A DNA stretch of 64,000 bases from Candidatus Nomurabacteria bacterium (GCA_003155695.1 PMDZ01000008.1:39362-103361), one strand, 5' to 3'. Counted from the first letter of the stretch, positions 11,421-47,290 are shown. Numbers and translations: made by a program. The notes: generated by a model from the letters alone, not told the origin.

Positions 11421-11454
11421 TGTTTTGGCCAAATATCTTCGTAAACTTTATCAA

Positions 11455-11502
11455 TAAAAAAGTCCTCGGATGAGGGAGGACGAGGAGCCAGACATTTTTT
11501 CT
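11455..11502 (+). repeat. hairpin motif copy 1 (core GTCCTCGGATGAGGGAGGACGAGGAGCCAGAC flanked by A6/T6 outer stem)
   Basis: One of four near-identical cores in the window. Located ~45 nt upstream of the prfA ATG. Confidence 0.7.
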
Positions 11503-11542
11503 TGAAAAAGTTTATTACGATATATATGTTATAATTTATTAT

Positions 11543-16517: not shown

Positions 16518-18020
16518 ATGTCAAAAAATTACATTGTAGAAAATTTAAAAAAGCAGATAGGGAGTTTCAAGAGTGATGCCCAAGCCGAGAAAGTCGGACA
16601 TGTTATCGAAGTTTTCGACGGTATAGCCAAGATTTCCGGACTTTCCGATATCAAAGCTTCAGAAATGGTTTCTTTCCCGAATGGCGAAATCGGTGTGACA
16701 CTCAACCTCGAAGAAGATTCAATCGGAGTTATTATTTTGGGCGATTTTTCTAAAATCCACGAAGGCGATGAGGTCAAGGCCATAGGTACTATTCTTTCTG
16801 TTCCGGTATCGGACTTGCAGATAGGACGTGTTTTGAATGCTCTCGGCGAGCCAATCGACGGTAAAGGCGCCATTAAAGCCGTCAAATCTAACCCAATAGA
16901 GAAGGTAGCACCTGGAGTTATTACACGTCTTTCAGTTTCGCAAGCCGTTCAGACAGGTATCAAAGCCATCGATGCTCTTATTCCAATTGGCCGTGGTCAG
17001 CGTGAGCTTATCATTGGCGACCGTCAAACAGGTAAAACTGCCATTGTTATCGACACAATTTTGAACCAAAAAGGACAAGACATGATTTGTATCTACGTTT
17101 CCATTGGTCAGAAGGATTCGAAACTTCGCAAATTGCAAACTCGACTTGAAGAAGGTGGAGCTATGGATTACACCATTATTGTTTCGGCTGGCTCCTCGGA
17201 GAGTGCCGCTTTGTCATACATCGCTCCTTATACCGGAGTTTCGATTGCTGAATATTTTATGGACCAAGGAAAAGATGTTTTGATAATTTATGATGACCTT
17301 TCCAAACACGCTGTCGCTTACCGTGAAATATCACTTTTACTTCGCCGTCCACCGGGTCGTGAAGCTTTCCCTGGAGACGTTTTCTATTTGCACTCCCGTT
17401 TGCTCGAACGCGCTTGCCGAAGAAATAAAGAGTATGGCGGCGGTTCGATTACGGCGTTGCCAATCGTTGAAACTCAATCGGGTGACGTCACGGCTTATAT
17501 TCCGACAAACGTTATTTCAATTACCGACGGACAAATATTCCTTGAAACCGATTTATTCTACAAAGGAATCCGTCCTGCTGTTAATGTCGGACTCTCAGTC
17601 TCGCGTGTCGGTTCGAATGCTCAAATTAAAGCCATGAAGAAAGTTTCCGGAACTCTGAAACTTGACCTTGCTCAATTCCGCGAGCTTGAAGCTTTCGCTC
17701 AATTCGGTTCTGACCTTGATGAAGGAACAAAGAGCCAGCTTGAACGCGGAAAACGCGCCGTCGAAGTCCTCAAGCAACCTCAATACGCTCCGGTTGCGAC
17801 CGAAGACCAAGTTGTCACACTTTATGCTCTGACTAAGGGCTTTATGGATGACGTAGCAATCGATAAAATCAAATCTTTTGAAGAAGGACTGACCGAATAC
17901 GCCCGGAAGAATGCCAAAACATTTTACAAGGAAGTTATTGAGGCAAAAATGTGGACAGACGCAGGAGAACAAGAATTAGTAAAAGTAATAGGCGAGTATA
18001 AGAGCAGTTTCGTTAAGTAA
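16518..18020 (+). CDS. atpA: F0F1 ATP synthase subunit alpha
   Basis: Walker A GDRQTGKT; alpha-type conserved blocks. 500 aa. Confidence 0.95.
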
Positions 18021-18033
18021 GTTACATCAAAAC

Positions 18034-18095
18034 ATTCTTTTCTTCGGGTCCTCGGATGAGGGAGGACGAGTAGCCAGACCAGCTCAGAAAAGAAC
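18034..18095 (+). repeat. hairpin motif copy 2 (core GTCCTCGGATGAGGGAGGACGAGTAGCCAGAC; outer stem ttcttttcttcgg / cagctcagaaaagaa)
   Basis: Lies between atpA and atpG, ~40 nt upstream of the atpG ATG. Confidence 0.7.
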
Positions 18096-18120
18096 ATTTT
18101 GATTCCGCTAAACATAATAT

Positions 18121-19065
18121 ATGGCGAGCACAAAAGAAATTAAAAGAAGAATAAAGAGTACTAAAAGTACAAAGAAAATCACCAAAGCAATGGAGCTTGT
18201 GGCTGCTTCGAAGATGAAGAAAGCTATTTCACAAACGTTGGCTTCGCGTCTTTATTCGACCTATTCTTGGGATATCCTGACATCGCTTTCCGAAAGACTG
18301 GAAAATATTACTCATAAATTTTTTACCGAAAATACAAATACAAACAAGCATTTGATAGTCCTTATTACTTCCAACCGTGGTCTATGCGGAGGTTACAACT
18401 CCCAAATTATAAAAAAGGCTATTGCAATGATTAAAGAAGAATCAAAATCGGCCGAACCTATTTCAATTGATATTGTTACTGTCGGAAAAAAAGGTGACGG
18501 AGCCATGCGCCGAACCGGTCAGAATATTGTCGCCAGTTTCCTTGAGATGCCGGAAAATGTGAGCTTGCAAGATGTCATTCCGATTTCAAATTATTTTGCC
18601 GATGAGTTTAAAAAAGAAAATTACAACAGAATTTATATCGCTTATACCGATTTCGTTTCGGCTTTGAGTCAGAAGCCGGTAATCAGAAAACTTCTGCCGA
18701 TATCGAAAGTAGAATTGAAGGAAGTCGTTGAACTGAACATAAAGGAAAAGGCTCCCGACAGCCGCGCTTCAATGGACGGTGCGCGGCATGATTTCGCTAA
18801 ATCCGAAACGCCATACTTATTGGAAGGAGAAACGGAAAAATTGCTGGACACATTGGCGGAGAAACTGGTCAGAATGCAAATATATCAGATGTTCCTCGAA
18901 TCAAGCGCATCCGAACAATCATCCAGAATGGTCGCCATGAAAAACGCCAACGAGGCCGCCGAAGAAATGATAAATGACCTGACTCTCGTCTTTAATAAAG
19001 CCAGACAGTCGAACATCACAAAGGAAATCAGTGAAATAAGTGCGGGAATGGCGTCGGTTAGTTAA
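18121..19065 (+). CDS. atpG: F0F1 ATP synthase subunit gamma
   Basis: N-terminal MASTKEIKRRIKSTKSTKKITKAMELVAASKM and a C-terminal gamma helix. 314 aa. Confidence 0.9.
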   Translation: MASTKEIKRRIKSTKSTKKITKAMELVAASKMKKAISQTLASRLYSTYSWDILTSLSERLENITHKFFTENTNTNKHLIVLITSNRGLCGGYNSQIIKKAIAMIKEESKSAEPISIDIVTVGKKGDGAMRRTGQNIVASFLEMPENVSLQDVIPISNYFADEFKKENYNRIYIAYTDFVSALSQKPVIRKLLPISKVELKEVVELNIKEKAPDSRASMDGARHDFAKSETPYLLEGETEKLLDTLAEKLVRMQIYQMFLESSASEQSSRMVAMKNANEAAEEMINDLTLVFNKARQSNITKEISEISAGMASVS

Positions 19066-19110
19066 TTAAAATTATTATCAATATTATAAACAGCTTCACA
19101 AATTATATTC

Positions 19111-20543
<1,433 letters not shown>

Positions 20544-36907: not shown

Positions 36908-37384
36908 TTATTCTCTTAAATAAGTTCTAAAATTAAATGGCTTATCTCCGATAAGAAAATTTACCGAAACAGATGGGGGCCTACCGTTTGCACTGGCTGT
37001 ATATGAAAATTTAACATTCGAAACTGGATATCTGTCACTATTTAACTGTATCGGTACACCAACGCCACGAGCAATAGTCATAATAGTGCCATTGCCACTT
37101 ATGACAAGGGGACTCTGTGCACCTAAGTCCGTTCTGGTTATGGTAACCGTATCACCACTTGCGGAGACGGTCGCATCGGATGCGCCGGTAAGAGCCCAGT
37201 TGATTTTACGATTAAGGAAAATTCCTTCTTCTTGTATTCCGGCGGCTGCAACATTATGATTACTTCCTTCAACAAGATTATATGTTCCAACTACAGCTCC
37301 GGTCATAAGTAAGCCGAAAAGAGCAATGTATATCATCGTTTCCATCAATGTAAATCCTTGTTGATTTTTTATCTTTTTTATCAT
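36908..37384 (-). CDS. minor pilin / pseudopilin
   Basis: QGFTLMETMIYIALFGLL prepilin N-terminus. 158 aa. Confidence 0.6.
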   Translation of the reverse strand: MIKKIKNQQGFTLMETMIYIALFGLLMTGAVVGTYNLVEGSNHNVAAAGIQEEGIFLNRKINWALTGASDATVSASGDTVTITRTDLGAQSPLVISGNGTIMTIARGVGVPIQLNSDRYPVSNVKFSYTASANGRPPSVSVNFLIGDKPFNFRTYLRE

Positions 37385-38946
37385 GGTGTGTATATTACTC
37401 CCAACTTATCGGTTGTTAAGTCTTGGCTAATGGCATAAATCCAATCTCCATCTATATCAAATCCAAGAGGGGCTAAGTGGGGAAAACTATAACTTGTAAA
37501 ACGACCGACATTCAATGTTCCTGTCCAAGTAGAATAATCGGAATCCCAAACTTGAAATTCTTGTCCACTTTTGCTTGTTTCTATATATGCATATTTACCT
37601 GATACCTCAATATTTGTTATGCTGGCTCCGACTTCACCTTGTTCGGATTCAGGGGTTAAAGAACTTTCCGGGTTAGTAACATCAAATACATAAAGTTCTG
37701 GACCTCCGGTATTTGATTGACGCCCGAAATATAAATTATTACCCAAAAGAGAAAGACTAAGACCATCTTGACTACCAGGAAGGTCAACTGAATTAAGTTC
37801 CGTTATTGTATCTCCGGTCACATCTAAAATGCCGAGTTCTTTTAAGTCGGAATCAGCAGCAAGAAAAACTAATCTATGGGTAACACCGGAAATTTTTTGG
37901 TCGCGGACAATTATATCATTTACCGTACGGTCAAGTTTAAAACCATTTCCTATTTCGGTTGGAATGGTCGGCGTAGAAATATTGAAAATATGAAATTCGT
38001 TTCCCGAAGTATAGCGAGTTGTCATATATAAACGACCTCCATAAACAAACAAATGCCATCCTTGCGGAGATGAACCCAGAGGGTCAACATTTTGGAGGTC
38101 ACGTTGCGCAACAAGTGTTGGAGTACTTGGGTCTGTCACATCAATAACGGCAAGTTGTTTGGTTGTCGCATTTACGGCCACGAAAGCATAAGTTCTTCCG
38201 GTAGCCAAGTCTTCCTCAACGTCAACAGCATTTAATTTTACCGGAACCCCGAGAACTTTTACAATATCTGTCGGTGAACTAACCAGAACAGGATTTTGAC
38301 CTACCGCTTCCGGGATATCATATATGGAAAAATATGGACTTATATTACTTGTTGTATAAATCTTTTTATGAAGCACATCAATACCAGTAAATTGCTTCCC
38401 TGGAGCAAATGGTAATGACCCTATACTTTCCGGTGTATTATTCTCCCAATCGCCACTCGGTTGATTTAAAACACAATCACCCCCGCGGGCAATAATTTCC
38501 GGGGTATTCGTGAGGTAAGTGAAAAGTTTTGTTGTCGTTGTTGGATAACTGGCTACTTGCCATTCTACTTTGGCTTCCACATATTTTGAGCAAGAAGATA
38601 AATCAGTAATATTTTTTTGAACATAATAGCACAATCCGCCGGCTATACATGAAGCGTCAGCTGAGTCGGAAGGATCTTTTGACACAGTCAAAGGCGAAGA
38701 TACCGCTTGATAAAAATCTTGTTTTATAAGAGAACGTAAATCTTCAAGCGTAGTCTTTGCTTTATAAAGCGCTTCGTTGGCAGTTTGCGAGGTTATTCCC
38801 CAATATTGGGCCGAAAAATTCGCATTTACCGCTCCAACAAGAACAATACAAATAAGAGCAAAAGCAATCATCAGTTCAATTGTTGAAAATCCCGATGTTT
38901 GATAATTGTAAATTTTTTTATTTTTACCAACTAATTTTTCCTTCAT
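37381..38946 (-). CDS. large prepilin-like protein with LVIVD-repeat beta-propeller
   Basis: SGFSTIELMIAFAL prepilin signal. Repeated ..LAVIDVTDPS.., ..LYVFDVTNPES.., and ..LGILDVTGD.. segments are typical of LVIVD repeats. Confidence 0.55.
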   Translation of the reverse strand: MKEKLVGKNKKIYNYQTSGFSTIELMIAFALICIVLVGAVNANFSAQYWGITSQTANEALYKAKTTLEDLRSLIKQDFYQAVSSPLTVSKDPSDSADASCIAGGLCYYVQKNITDLSSCSKYVEAKVEWQVASYPTTTTKLFTYLTNTPEIIARGGDCVLNQPSGDWENNTPESIGSLPFAPGKQFTGIDVLHKKIYTTSNISPYFSIYDIPEAVGQNPVLVSSPTDIVKVLGVPVKLNAVDVEEDLATGRTYAFVAVNATTKQLAVIDVTDPSTPTLVAQRDLQNVDPLGSSPQGWHLFVYGGRLYMTTRYTSGNEFHIFNISTPTIPTEIGNGFKLDRTVNDIIVRDQKISGVTHRLVFLAADSDLKELGILDVTGDTITELNSVDLPGSQDGLSLSLLGNNLYFGRQSNTGGPELYVFDVTNPESSLTPESEQGEVGASITNIEVSGKYAYIETSKSGQEFQVWDSDYSTWTGTLNVGRFTSYSFPHLAPLGFDIDGDWIYAISQDLTTDKLGVIYTP

Positions 38947-39385
38947 GATTTATTGATATTACTGCTGTAATATTACGATTTGGGTCTATCATGGTTATAT
39001 CCGTATCCTCAGCATCGCCGCTTAATTGCTCGAAAGTAATTTCCGTCGGTGATGTTGGACTGAATGTCACTTCGTAGGAAGATTTCGTATCTTCATCTTT
39101 TGAGCTATCTCTCTCATCGTAAGAATTACCTTCAAAAATAACATATCCCTCATATCCCGCCGGATTGATAGCGACACCGTGTTGCTCTTGGTCTATATTA
39201 TTAAGAGCATCGGCTCGGGCAGTTTGGAGAGCAAGACCAAGATTATTTACTTCGGAACGGAAAGCATCTCCTCGGAAACTATTTATATCTATAAATAACG
39301 ACATCGTTGCGATTACACCGACAAGCCCGATGACAACCAGCATTTCCATTAACGTGAACCCTTTTTCTAATTCAACTTTTTTCAT
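38924..39385 (-). CDS. minor pilin / pseudopilin
   Basis: KGFTLMEMLVVIGLVGVIA prepilin N-terminus. The start is taken at the MKKVELEKGFTL ATG rather than the extended ORF. Confidence 0.6.
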   Translation of the reverse strand: MKKVELEKGFTLMEMLVVIGLVGVIATMSLFIDINSFRGDAFRSEVNNLGLALQTARADALNNIDQEQHGVAINPAGYEGYVIFEGNSYDERDSSKDEDTKSSYEVTFSPTSPTEITFEQLSGDAEDTDITMIDPNRNITAVISINHEGKISW

Positions 39386-44256: not shown

Positions 44257-45939
44257 ATGACCCAAGAACAAGCGTTTCAAATTATGAAAACCGGAGTGAA
44301 TATTTATCTGACTGGCAGTGCCGGAAGCGGTAAAACTTATCTCCTCAATAAATATATTTCGTATCTACAAAGTCACGACATTCCCGTGGCAGTCACGGCT
44401 TCGACCGGTATTGCCGCCACCCATATGAACGGCATGACCATACACTCTTGGAGTGGAATCGGAATTAAAAATTTTCTTGGTGAAAAAGAATTGGAACAGC
44501 TGGAGGATAAGAAATATCTTTGGAAGAGGTTTGAAAAAGCTCGCGTTTTAATTATTGATGAAGTTTCAATGCTCCACGGCAGCCAGCTTGAAATGGTGGA
44601 GAAAGTCTGCCGGAGATTCAAAAGAAACGATAAGTCATTTGGTGGATTGCAAGTTATTCTATCCGGTGATTTTTTCCAATTGCCACCGATAAGCAAAATT
44701 AATGAGGAGAATGAAAGTGGAATGGTTTTCGCCAGCAAGTCATGGCAAATATTGAATCCGGCAATTTGCTATATCGAGGAACAGCATCGCCAAGAAGACG
44801 ACACGCTTTTGGAAATCCTAAACACAATCCGCTCGGGTGAAATGCAAGAGAAACATTATGAACTTCTAAGAAGTCGTATCGGTGCCAAGCTGAAGAGCGA
44901 CGCAAAAGCAACCAAACTTTACACTCACAATATAAATGTCGACGATATAAATAATATTGAACTTTCTCTTATCAATAATGAAGAAAGAATTTCCATTATG
45001 ACTTCGACTGGTCCGGAACCACTTGTGGAGATATTGAAAAAGAGTTGCCTGGCTCATGAAAAATTAAAACTGAAAGTCGGTGCCGAAATAATGTGTATTA
45101 AGAATAATTTTGAAAATGGCTATGTGAATGGCTCTCGAGGTAAGATTATCGGGTTTGAAAAGGAAGGTGGAAACCCGATTATAGAGCTTTATAATGGCCG
45201 TAAAATAAGCCTAAAACCGGAAATATGGGCTATTGAAGAGGATGGGAAAGTTAAGGCCTCGGTTTCGCAAATACCGCTTCGCCTGGCTTGGGCAATCACC
45301 ATTCACAAAAGCCAAGGAATGTCGCTTGATAATGCCGAGATAGACCTGACAAAAAGTTTTTCTTATGGCATGGGTTATGTCGCTCTTTCAAGAGTCAGAA
45401 CTTTGGAAGGGATAAGCTTAGTTGGATTTAATGCTGAGGCACTTCGAGTTGACCCGAAAGTTTTGGAATTCGACCAAGATTTGAAGAATCAAAGTTTTCA
45501 GAATGAACTATTATTTAAGAAATTAAAAAATGATGAACAGAAAAAACTGGAGGAAGATTTTATTTTGAAGCTGGGAGGAACAATAATATCGGGAAATAAA
45601 AAAATTAAGAACAAGAGAATTGTAGAAACGAAAGTCCCGACAATTTTAATTACCAAAGAATTGCTCGATAAAGGTTATTCGGTAAAGGAAATCGCCAAAG
45701 AAAGGAATCTGACACAAGGGACGATAACTCACCACATAGAAGAAATCGTTTCGCAATATCCGGAGACAAATATCGTGCATATTCGTCCACAGCAAAAGCA
45801 TATCGACTTGGTCAAAACGATAAATAAAAAACTGAAAGGAGATGAAATAGGCAGATTAAACCCAATCAAATTAATACTTGAAAAAGAAGGATATAAAATG
45901 AGTTTCGAAGAAATTCGAATCGCAAAATTATTTATCTAA
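44257..45939 (+). CDS. Pif1/RecD-like AAA ATPase DNA helicase with C-terminal HTH
   Basis: Walker A GSAGSGKTY and Walker B LIIDEVSM, followed by Pif1-like motifs. 560 aa. Confidence 0.7.
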   Translation: MTQEQAFQIMKTGVNIYLTGSAGSGKTYLLNKYISYLQSHDIPVAVTASTGIAATHMNGMTIHSWSGIGIKNFLGEKELEQLEDKKYLWKRFEKARVLIIDEVSMLHGSQLEMVEKVCRRFKRNDKSFGGLQVILSGDFFQLPPISKINEENESGMVFASKSWQILNPAICYIEEQHRQEDDTLLEILNTIRSGEMQEKHYELLRSRIGAKLKSDAKATKLYTHNINVDDINNIELSLINNEERISIMTSTGPEPLVEILKKSCLAHEKLKLKVGAEIMCIKNNFENGYVNGSRGKIIGFEKEGGNPIIELYNGRKISLKPEIWAIEEDGKVKASVSQIPLRLAWAITIHKSQGMSLDNAEIDLTKSFSYGMGYVALSRVRTLEGISLVGFNAEALRVDPKVLEFDQDLKNQSFQNELLFKKLKNDEQKKLEEDFILKLGGTIISGNKKIKNKRIVETKVPTILITKELLDKGYSVKEIAKERNLTQGTITHHIEEIVSQYPETNIVHIRPQQKHIDLVKTINKKLKGDEIGRLNPIKLILEKEGYKMSFEEIRIAKLFI

Positions 45940-46916: not shown

Positions 46917-47010
46917 ATACACAGTATAAATTATTTTCCGGGTTTTGGAAATAGTTAGAAGGTGATATAATATATTTATTATTAAAATAACCGGCTACAT
47001 TAAAATATTA

Positions 47011-47064
47011 TTTTCTTCAGGTCCTCGGATGAGGAAGGACAAGGAGCCAGACCATGAAGAAAAC
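47011..47064 (+). repeat. hairpin motif copy 4 (core GTCCTCGGATGAGGAAGGACAAGGAGCCAGAC; outer stem ttttcttcagg / ccatgaagaaaa)
   Basis: Orphan copy. A 19-codon basic ORF (47094-47153, MAKGMTHKKEVKKPKKNKK) and a strong terminator at 47161-47199 follow. Confidence 0.65.
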
Positions 47065-47290
47065 AAAATTTTAATTTCGCCTCAAAATAACATATGGCAA
47101 AAGGAATGACTCACAAGAAGGAGGTTAAGAAGCCAAAGAAAAACAAAAAATAAATTTTCTAAAAATACTTCCCGACTTCGGTTAGGGAAGTATTTTTAGA
47201 ATAATTCGACCGATTATGAATAATGTAATCTTTTTGATTTATTATTAATTTCCTTGCATAATATAATAATTTTTTATATACTCCGAACAT

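Follow-up and report, generated by a model that had tools for sequence, protein, structure and literature searches.

Four structured hairpins in a 64,000-nt stretch of Candidatus Nomurabacteria DNA (the window, i.e., the whole stretch analysed) probably (at a probability of about 0.6) belong to a palindromic mini-element that is dispersed through Paceibacteria/Nomurabacteria and is mobile or was so until recently; it is comparable to Rickettsia palindromic elements (RPEs) and MITEs. This ~90-nt palindromic repeat of CPR bacteria is apparently undescribed so far. Genomes and metagenomes of Paceibacteria/Nomurabacteria yielded at least ~170 copies. Of the three roles listed in a preliminary description of the window, that of a small mobile palindromic unit is the one supported, namely by empty sites, by this number of copies, by in-frame inserts, and by decayed and nested copies.

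The pattern GTCCTCGGATGAGGRAGGAC was found in the 64-kb window at positions 11462, 18048, 19119 and 47021, in all cases on the plus strand and with no mismatches, and in none of 100 dinucleotide-preserving shuffles of the window, which confirms the four core sites described initially. The 32-nt core is GTCCTCGGATGAGGrAGGACrAGkAGCCAGAC in all four copies. The covariance model, the check proposed earlier, was run on the window with filters off and recovered exactly these four copies, with scores of 80.7–95.4 bits, and no fifth; other weak matches were represented by the reverse strands of the four copies and by ordinary hairpins without the core. Minimum free energy folds of the four copies are −15 to −26 kcal/mol, with z-scores of −1.4 to −3.3. 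The distances from core end to ATG in copies 1–4 are 49, 41, 37 and 41 nt (release factor, atpG, atpD and 19-aa mini-ORF, respectively), and the spacing of 38–50 nt given previously for prfA, atpG, atpD and the mini-ORF is correct; the gene 3' of copy 1 encodes a class-I release factor with PCRF and RF-1 domains. The location of two copies within the ATP synthase operon, in the atpA-atpG and atpG-atpD spacers, was also borne out. The features are as follows.

11434–11522, plus strand: copy 1, between rpmE (L31, 11085–11303) and the release-factor gene (ATG 11543); 90.1 bits
11434–11437 / 11519–11522, plus strand: basal helix of copy 1
11438–11440 / 11516–11518, plus strand: loop of copy 1, UUC / UAC
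11441–11461 / 11495–11515, plus strand: arms of copy 1
11462–11493, plus strand: core of copy 1
11494, plus strand: bulged A of copy 1
11528–11536: TGtTATAAT box between copy 1 and ATG 11543, six bases before the ATG
18020–18109, plus strand: copy 2, atpA-atpG spacer (atpG ATG 18121), its first base being the final base of the atpA stop codon (TAA 18018–18020); 80.9 bits; fold z-score −3.26
18023–18025 / 18104–18106, plus strand: loop of copy 2, UAC / UCC
18026–18047 / 18080–18103, plus strand: arms of copy 2
18048–18079, plus strand: core of copy 2
19092–19178, plus strand: copy 3 (subfamily A arms), atpG-atpD spacer (atpD ATG 19188); 95.4 bits
19092–19094 / 19176–19178, plus strand: basal helix of copy 3, AGC / GCU
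19095–19097 / 19173–19175, plus strand: loop of copy 3, UUC / UCC
19098–19118 / 19152–19172, plus strand: arms of copy 3
19119–19150, plus strand: core of copy 3
19151, plus strand: bulged A of copy 3
46993–47081, plus strand: copy 4, with A at core position 15; 80.7 bits; fold z-score −3.22
46993–46995 / 47079–47081, plus strand: basal helix of copy 4, GGC / GCC
46996–46998 / 47076–47078, plus strand: loop of copy 4, UAC / UUC
46999–47020 / 47053–47075, plus strand: arms of copy 4
47021–47052, plus strand: core of copy 4
47094–47153, plus strand: mini-ORF MAKGMTHKKEVKKPKKNKK (19 aa, lysine-rich, then a stop), 3' of copy 4 and followed by a plain hairpin at 47147–47212

The same tiny ORF (MAKG...) was found behind the element in L054, L075 and L173; being kept there in several genomes, it is probably a genuine small gene.

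The unit comprises, from the outside in, a basal helix, a 3x3 pyrimidine loop, an arm and the core at the apex. The basal helix, of 2–5 bp, is covarying (GGC/GCC, AGC/GCU, AUC/GAU and GAGAC/GUCUC), and the conserved 3x3 internal loop contains 5'-U(A/U/C)C opposite 5'-U(U/C/A)C. The arm is ~21 bp long, near constant in length and variable in sequence yet paired; it contains a fixed mid-stem mismatch ~12–13 bp away from the core, which is A-C or, in the commonest subfamily, A-A plus C-U, and a bulged A is located immediately 3' of the GAC closing the asymmetric 32-nt core. These helix irregularities are common to subfamilies with differing arm sequences, and the basal helix together with the 3x3 loop was recovered in at least 72 of 143 distinct copies by unconstrained folding. 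The complementary but divergent outer stems noted at first are thus genuine and longer than claimed (~21 bp plus a basal helix of 2–5 bp), while the supposedly separate conserved block before the ATG, TTCCGCT, is part of the element, being the 3' strand of its internal loop and basal helix. Extra GC-rich hairpins are tolerated at two fixed points of the core, after GUCCUCG and after GCCA; some copies retain the core termini alone (GUCCUCGG...CCAGAC), and the cores in L059 and L007 are degenerate. Blocks CTWCRC and YTHCGY flank the element, one per side. As a target-site duplication or a prior target they were rejected, not being identical within a copy and being missing from empty sites.

Double compensatory changes were found in 16 of 22 predicted pairs (RNAalifold, 59-copy alignment), with one-sided changes nearly nil. 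The covariation reported in the preliminary description is accordingly real; as proof of a selected RNA it does not hold, because an inverted DNA repeat yields an equal signal and wobble intermediates are nearly absent. The raw count of 27 A-C versus 4 G-U would point to folding of the complementary strand, but most A-C cases are the one conserved mid-stem mismatch or 3x3-loop positions; elsewhere ~8 A-C and ~6 G-U were counted in ~1,100 pairs, so that wobble pairs do not tell which strand folds.

Copies at the same site in different species, chosen for intact cores, differ by compensatory changes altering both encoded peptides. In the Tgt arms, CCCGC/GCGGG corresponds to TCTGC/GCAGA and CCTGC/GCAGG, and in the LeuRS arms CCAAAAAG/CTTTTTGG corresponds to CTGGAAAG/CTTTCCAG. 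These changes look like selection in place; they could result from selection for folding or from the correction of quasi-palindromes by template switching, which is a known mutational process. The conserved loop, mismatch and bulge go beyond what correction alone gives, which suggests that some factor recognises one particular fold.

An exact-pattern scan of one genome per species matched 58 stretches, nearly all from Paceibacterota, Nomurabacteria or similarly labelled CPR MAGs; a single MAG contains 11 exact-match copies on nine contigs. In metagenomes at least 106 further distinct copies were found with a pattern that fixes the last two-thirds (3') of the core and leaves the leading GTCCTC unconstrained; among these copies as listed, 95 start with GTCCTC and eight more carry an inner-hairpin variant. 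The viral contigs searched contained no copies, and the copy in L013 (Acidimicrobiia) was rejected as a chance match, since its core is not conserved in the 3' part. The Rfam search proposed initially gave no family for the motif: at the gathering threshold a tRNA was the sole match, and at E<=10 nothing overlapped the motif on the plus strand of 18000–19200. A literature search for the element sequence and for CPR palindromic or MITE repeats returned nothing relevant.

Variants are shared between copies within one genome. The element is also located upstream of the same genes in several species, namely, atpD, gap, the MAKG mini-ORF and a gene starting MSEY/FR. Several results count against a mobile element: no long version with the core termini and no transposase were found in the 64 loci searched; subfamily A arms are 87% identical across species with AtpG only ~70% identical; the order among intergenic copies is well above that of simple junk; copies at shared sites show the compensatory changes given above; and neither a target-site duplication nor a presence/absence difference between near-identical strains was seen. 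Close pairs of copies on one contig were observed in L019 (6211 and 6446), L133 (733 and 1475) and L116 (2835 and 5450), 235 nt to 2.6 kb apart; in L019 the two tandem copies, with different arms, are upstream of one gene.

The atp locus was compared in six relatives with AtpG 65–73% identical. The atpA-atpG spacer is element-free and 6–9 nt long in L061, L063 and L064 and filled in the window, L059, L060 and L062. Among the three filled relatives, one copy has a standard core on other arms, one has five substitutions confined to the inner loop, and one has a truncated core. The atpG-atpD copy is missing from all six relatives. The presence of atpG and atpD without the element indicates that it is dispensable there. 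At the atp spacer and the Tgt hotspot described below, no target-site duplication can be seen, although the alleles compared there belong to different species and have A/T-rich flanks. Presence/absence polymorphism between near-identical strains was not seen, so recent movement is inferred and not observed. Another lineage-specific insertion, a 131-aa 23S_rRNA_IVP gene (PF05635), is located between atpG and atpD in L060 (3432–3827).

In both scans ~60% of the listed copies are intergenic and ~40% are within ORFs. Of the in-ORF copies listed, 39 are sense and 11 antisense; they belong to at least 15 protein families and leave the host frame open. The hosts are Tgt, RNase HII, TrmD, TruB, TsaD, LeuRS, UvrA, UvrB, UvrC, Pol I, MurB, aminopeptidase N (PepN), cysteine desulfurase, RsmA and others. 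Inserts of ~27–35 aa, always whole codons, are placed in surface loops of these housekeeping proteins; relative to solved structures, Tgt has gained a net ~33 aa and TrmD 27 aa. Three reading modes of the core occur, giving an 11-letter peptide in each of two sense frames and a 10-letter peptide from the reverse strand, and the conservation of the core is therefore not a protein constraint; the sense frame with TGA is never used among in-ORF copies. Subfamily A, the commonest, has stops in all three sense frames (consensus read by eye) and was seen between genes only, which indicates that in-ORF copies are filtered for open frames. The uvrC gene of L023 contains two inserts, at ~aa 132 and ~aa 230, one of them a standard antisense copy and the other a sense copy with the termini GTCCTCGG...CCAGAC around a different GC hairpin.

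Removal or skipping at the RNA level, by a mini-intron, a self-cleaving ribozyme or translational bypass, would suit a compact, stable hairpin with conserved ends, similar blocks (CTWCRC and YTHCGY) on each side and, as in many ribozymes, variable extra hairpins at fixed points of the core. It is very improbable: open frames would be needless in an excised or bypassed insert, yet all in-gene copies keep the frame open, avoid the TGA frame and add whole codons, stop-bearing arm families are kept out of genes, and no ribozyme or intron of Rfam was matched. The open frames and the exclusion of stop-bearing arms argue that the in-ORF inserts are translated rather than excised.

The Tgt hotspot was studied in 120 homologues (P0121–P0240; 71–100% identity), which were gathered by protein similarity, whether or not an intact core was present. 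Between WAKRS and ALFG, the loop has 11–16 aa in empty alleles and up to 85 aa in filled ones. It contains the element in frame 2, in frame 3 or antisense, in decayed, lengthened and nested forms, as well as unrelated insert families with the peptides NSSRFTLKGSDATQNS, ENRRCGRAGARNERRGISDF, NPSRPPLIRGG..KSPPDKGD, LSHDSHSSL..VAHV.ES, PPLLTKEGNEGRFLINSPLPDPLL and LEVQPLAGFxGCTS. At the DNA level, the empty allele of L183 and the filled alleles of L185–L187 share the same A-rich stretch, and each filled allele forms a long, almost perfect palindrome (−39 to −53 kcal/mol). Around this stretch the empty site of L183 is bracketed by a short inverted repeat, GAGGAA ... TTCCTC, which could be a target feature or the footprint of an earlier element. 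Opposite orientations at one position were found in different species for Tgt, PepN, TruB and TsaD; flipping the element where it lies would keep the reading frame, as its arms are palindromes. One of the unrelated Tgt-loop families, inspected as DNA, is a further long palindrome with the core TCRCGCTTTACCCTAAAGGGCTCCGACGCGACTC (L184, 970–1003; L020, L140 and L169); this second family is itself dispersed and similarly designed, with variable paired arms, CTTCRC-type basal blocks and a different core.

Among the matches listed, a co-oriented downstream gene start is present for 61–62 intergenic copies versus 2–3 on the other strand. The distance from core to ATG has a median of 39 nt (IQR 38–43), with the ATG ~10–11 nt past the helix base; both orientation bias and spacing hold with or without an A-run in the arm. 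Essentially no copies are located in convergent 3' regions. Where gene strand and local GC skew are in conflict, the orientation of the element tracks the gene, which indicates that transcription outweighs replication direction. An explanation by replication direction (single-strand transposition, lagging-strand template) was rejected, as orientation does not go with GC skew and the antisense in-ORF copies oppose both.

This order would fit a cis-acting RNA useful to the host, whose rigid hairpin, with its base ~10–11 nt before the AUG of an operon-internal gene, would hold the start region single-stranded, draw the preceding stop and the next start together for termination–reinitiation, or provide a processing or stability site (e.g., an RNase III substrate), in-ORF copies being by-products of the same mobile family. 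Such a function is the main alternative and a tentative possibility. It agrees with the co-orientation and spacing, whether or not an A-run is present, with orientation tracking the gene against GC skew, with the recurrence of the same downstream genes in several species, with the absence of SD sequences and the -10-like boxes adjoining start codons, and with fixed helix irregularities across subfamilies of differing arms. Against it are the dispensability of the element at atpG and atpD in relatives, the ~40% of listed copies inside ORFs with no start codon after them, the probable position of copy 1 outside the mRNA of its gene, and G-U pairs as rare as A-C pairs, which is atypical for an evolving RNA helix. 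The spacing also fits short ancestral spacers plus a minimum ribosome clearance. The mobile-element explanation and a host-useful RNA are not mutually exclusive, and a role of the element in mRNA is possible.

An A-run is present in 55 of the 89 intergenic copies among the matches listed and in none of the 11 antisense in-ORF copies. Read in reverse, T6-7 comes directly after the inner GC hairpin, and an independent terminator scan flagged copies 1 and 3 as terminator-like on the reverse strand. A terminator filter accounts for only part of the orientation bias: the bias is just as strong in copies lacking the A-run, and terminator avoidance as the complete cause was rejected for this reason. 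An opposite-strand or DNA-level role, i.e., one-way termination of antisense transcription or a cruciform or hairpin bound by a chromosomal protein, is also improbable. The A-runs and the terminator-like reverse strands agree with the former, and a constraint on both strands would leave hardly any wobble pairs, as observed; however, a third of the intergenic and nearly all in-ORF copies lack the A-run, binding to duplex DNA leaves the 3x3 loop, mismatch and bulge unexplained, and orientation tracks the gene rather than local GC skew.

A promoter in the 3' arm was likewise considered and rejected: the TTTAAA/TATAAA-like hexamer after CGC is only 3–7 nt from the ATG, and its key A2 and T6 are usually missing. 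Genuine TGnTATAAT boxes stand 6–9 nt from other ATGs, as observed in the window, e.g., for the ATGs 937, 3273, 4481, 7370, 11543, 26831, 44257, 45975 and 59532, where the extended -10 ends at this distance. A -10-like hexamer directly precedes the ATG in 18 of 53 window genes versus a 4% background, and these boxes abutting ATGs point to leaderless first genes and to leaderless mRNAs being widespread. Operon-internal genes of the window start a few bases after the previous stop. Copy 1 is upstream of the TGtTATAAT box that would start a leaderless transcript, and it is probably not part of the release-factor mRNA.

An SD-like tetramer at −20 to −4 was found in three of 53 window genes, which is under the 10% background. 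Since the organism uses no SD sequences, the sequestration of an SD by an anti-SD proposed in the preliminary description fails. An attenuator or riboswitch-like control of prfA, atpG and atpD on this basis is extremely unlikely. It would agree with the strong conservation of the core and with the inner 6-bp hairpin, which is predicted in three of the four window copies and persists in the L062 variant with its mutated loop. However, the SD-like GGGAGGA of the core is 50–62 nt before the ATG, at the tip of a 21-bp helix, and the gene's own RBS is not in the pairing; the core is also found within ORFs, in three reading modes including antisense; and the downstream genes are functionally unrelated, so the element is not confined to leaders of related genes, and gene-specific control of prfA and the atp genes was not upheld. 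The sense strand contains no alternative terminator/antiterminator pairing, and with 12 nt between the inner hairpin and the U-run it was not flagged by the terminator scan and does not form an intrinsic terminator. No Rfam family was matched at E<=10.

RPEs are palindromes of ~100–150 nt located between genes and in frame in unrelated genes, each encoding a conserved peptide (PMC10969869). Compared by description only, the two systems share small reduced genomes and in-frame housekeeping inserts that add a peptide while the protein is kept; here, too, an in-frame palindrome in unrelated genes leaves the ORF open. They differ in host, Alphaproteobacteria for RPEs and Patescibacteria/CPR for the element, and in what is conserved, a peptide in RPEs and here a constant core read in three modes within variable compensating arms. 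Fixed helix defects, start-codon placement, opposite orientations at one site and shared hotspots are not listed for RPEs in PMC10969869.

MITEs, whose roles are reviewed in the same paper (PMC10969869), would be similar as short non-autonomous inverted repeats co-transcribed with their neighbours. The element is dispersed, differs in presence or absence at atpA-atpG and Tgt, and has arms of ~21 bp and a basal helix complementary in every copy; unlike in typical MITEs, the arm sequence differs between copies, terminal repeats are not conserved in sequence and in-gene copies are common. Neither a duplication at the atp and Tgt sites nor a related IS or transposase in the 64 loci was found.

Hairpins of Correia elements (Neisseria) and of enterobacterial ERIC/IRU can alter mRNA processing and stability in an orientation-dependent manner. 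The conservation of structure with varying sequence, and with fixed unpaired bases, bulges and an internal loop as likely recognition features of a folded single strand, would also be reminiscent of integron attC sites, IS200/IS605 ends and REP/RAYT. The end blocks, however, depart from the attC consensus RYYYAAC/GTTRRRY, and the context is housekeeping operons and ORFs instead of a cassette array with an integrase. REP/BIME sequences are extragenic, 20–40 nt long, carry a 5' GTAG and go with a RAYT gene, whereas the element is ~90 nt long, often in genes and lacks GTAG. No Y1/HUH transposase was seen near the element.

For the mobile mini-element, the irregular hairpin would be recognised, as a folded single strand, by a putative mobilising enzyme. 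Selection for folding, template-switch correction of quasi-palindromes, or both together would maintain arm complementarity, and opposite orientations at one site would arise through flipping in place. Host tolerance would shape where intergenic copies persist: as the hairpin folds aside, the upstream stop and the downstream start would remain close, the helix base would come no closer than ~10 nt to the ATG, and reversed A-run subfamilies would form an intrinsic terminator within operons. An unlikely extension, based on at least two families sharing the basal design, would be a superfamily of structure-defined palindromes with interchangeable cores, which move as folded single strands without obvious duplication and flip in place, and whose intergenic copies have been co-opted as a spacer, with the helix ~10 nt before the AUG, for translating operon-internal genes without SD.

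In-frame palindromes are known from Rickettsia (PMC10969869), and their rich counterpart in CPR bacteria, defined by structure and showing hotspots, modular cores and ordered placement before start codons, appears to be new; it would be the second case of the phenomenon, independent of the first and in a different reduced-genome lineage. CPR/Patescibacteria have some of the smallest and most streamlined genomes known; nevertheless, a prolific repeat is tolerated there, and perhaps used, even within essential enzymes (Tgt, UvrB, Pol I and LeuRS). The element would account for puzzling 27–35 aa insertions and length variation in CPR proteins, affects gene calling, phylogeny alignments and structure prediction, and may serve as a strain-level marker. 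The constant core, covarying arms and fixed defects point to a putative structure-reading enzyme, and the ordered placement before start codons offers a handle on the translation of operon-internal genes without SD.

Two further observations concern other parts of the window. At 36908–39385, on the minus strand, two small ORFs starting MIKKIKNQQGFT... and MKKVELEKGFTL..., which resemble prepilin-type N-terminal signals, are located beside a 1342-aa ORF and, judging by sequence, may belong to a type IV pilus or competence-like cluster. A PIF1-like helicase whose C-terminal part is an HTH_40 domain is encoded at 44257–45939, on the plus strand and ~1 kb upstream of copy 4.
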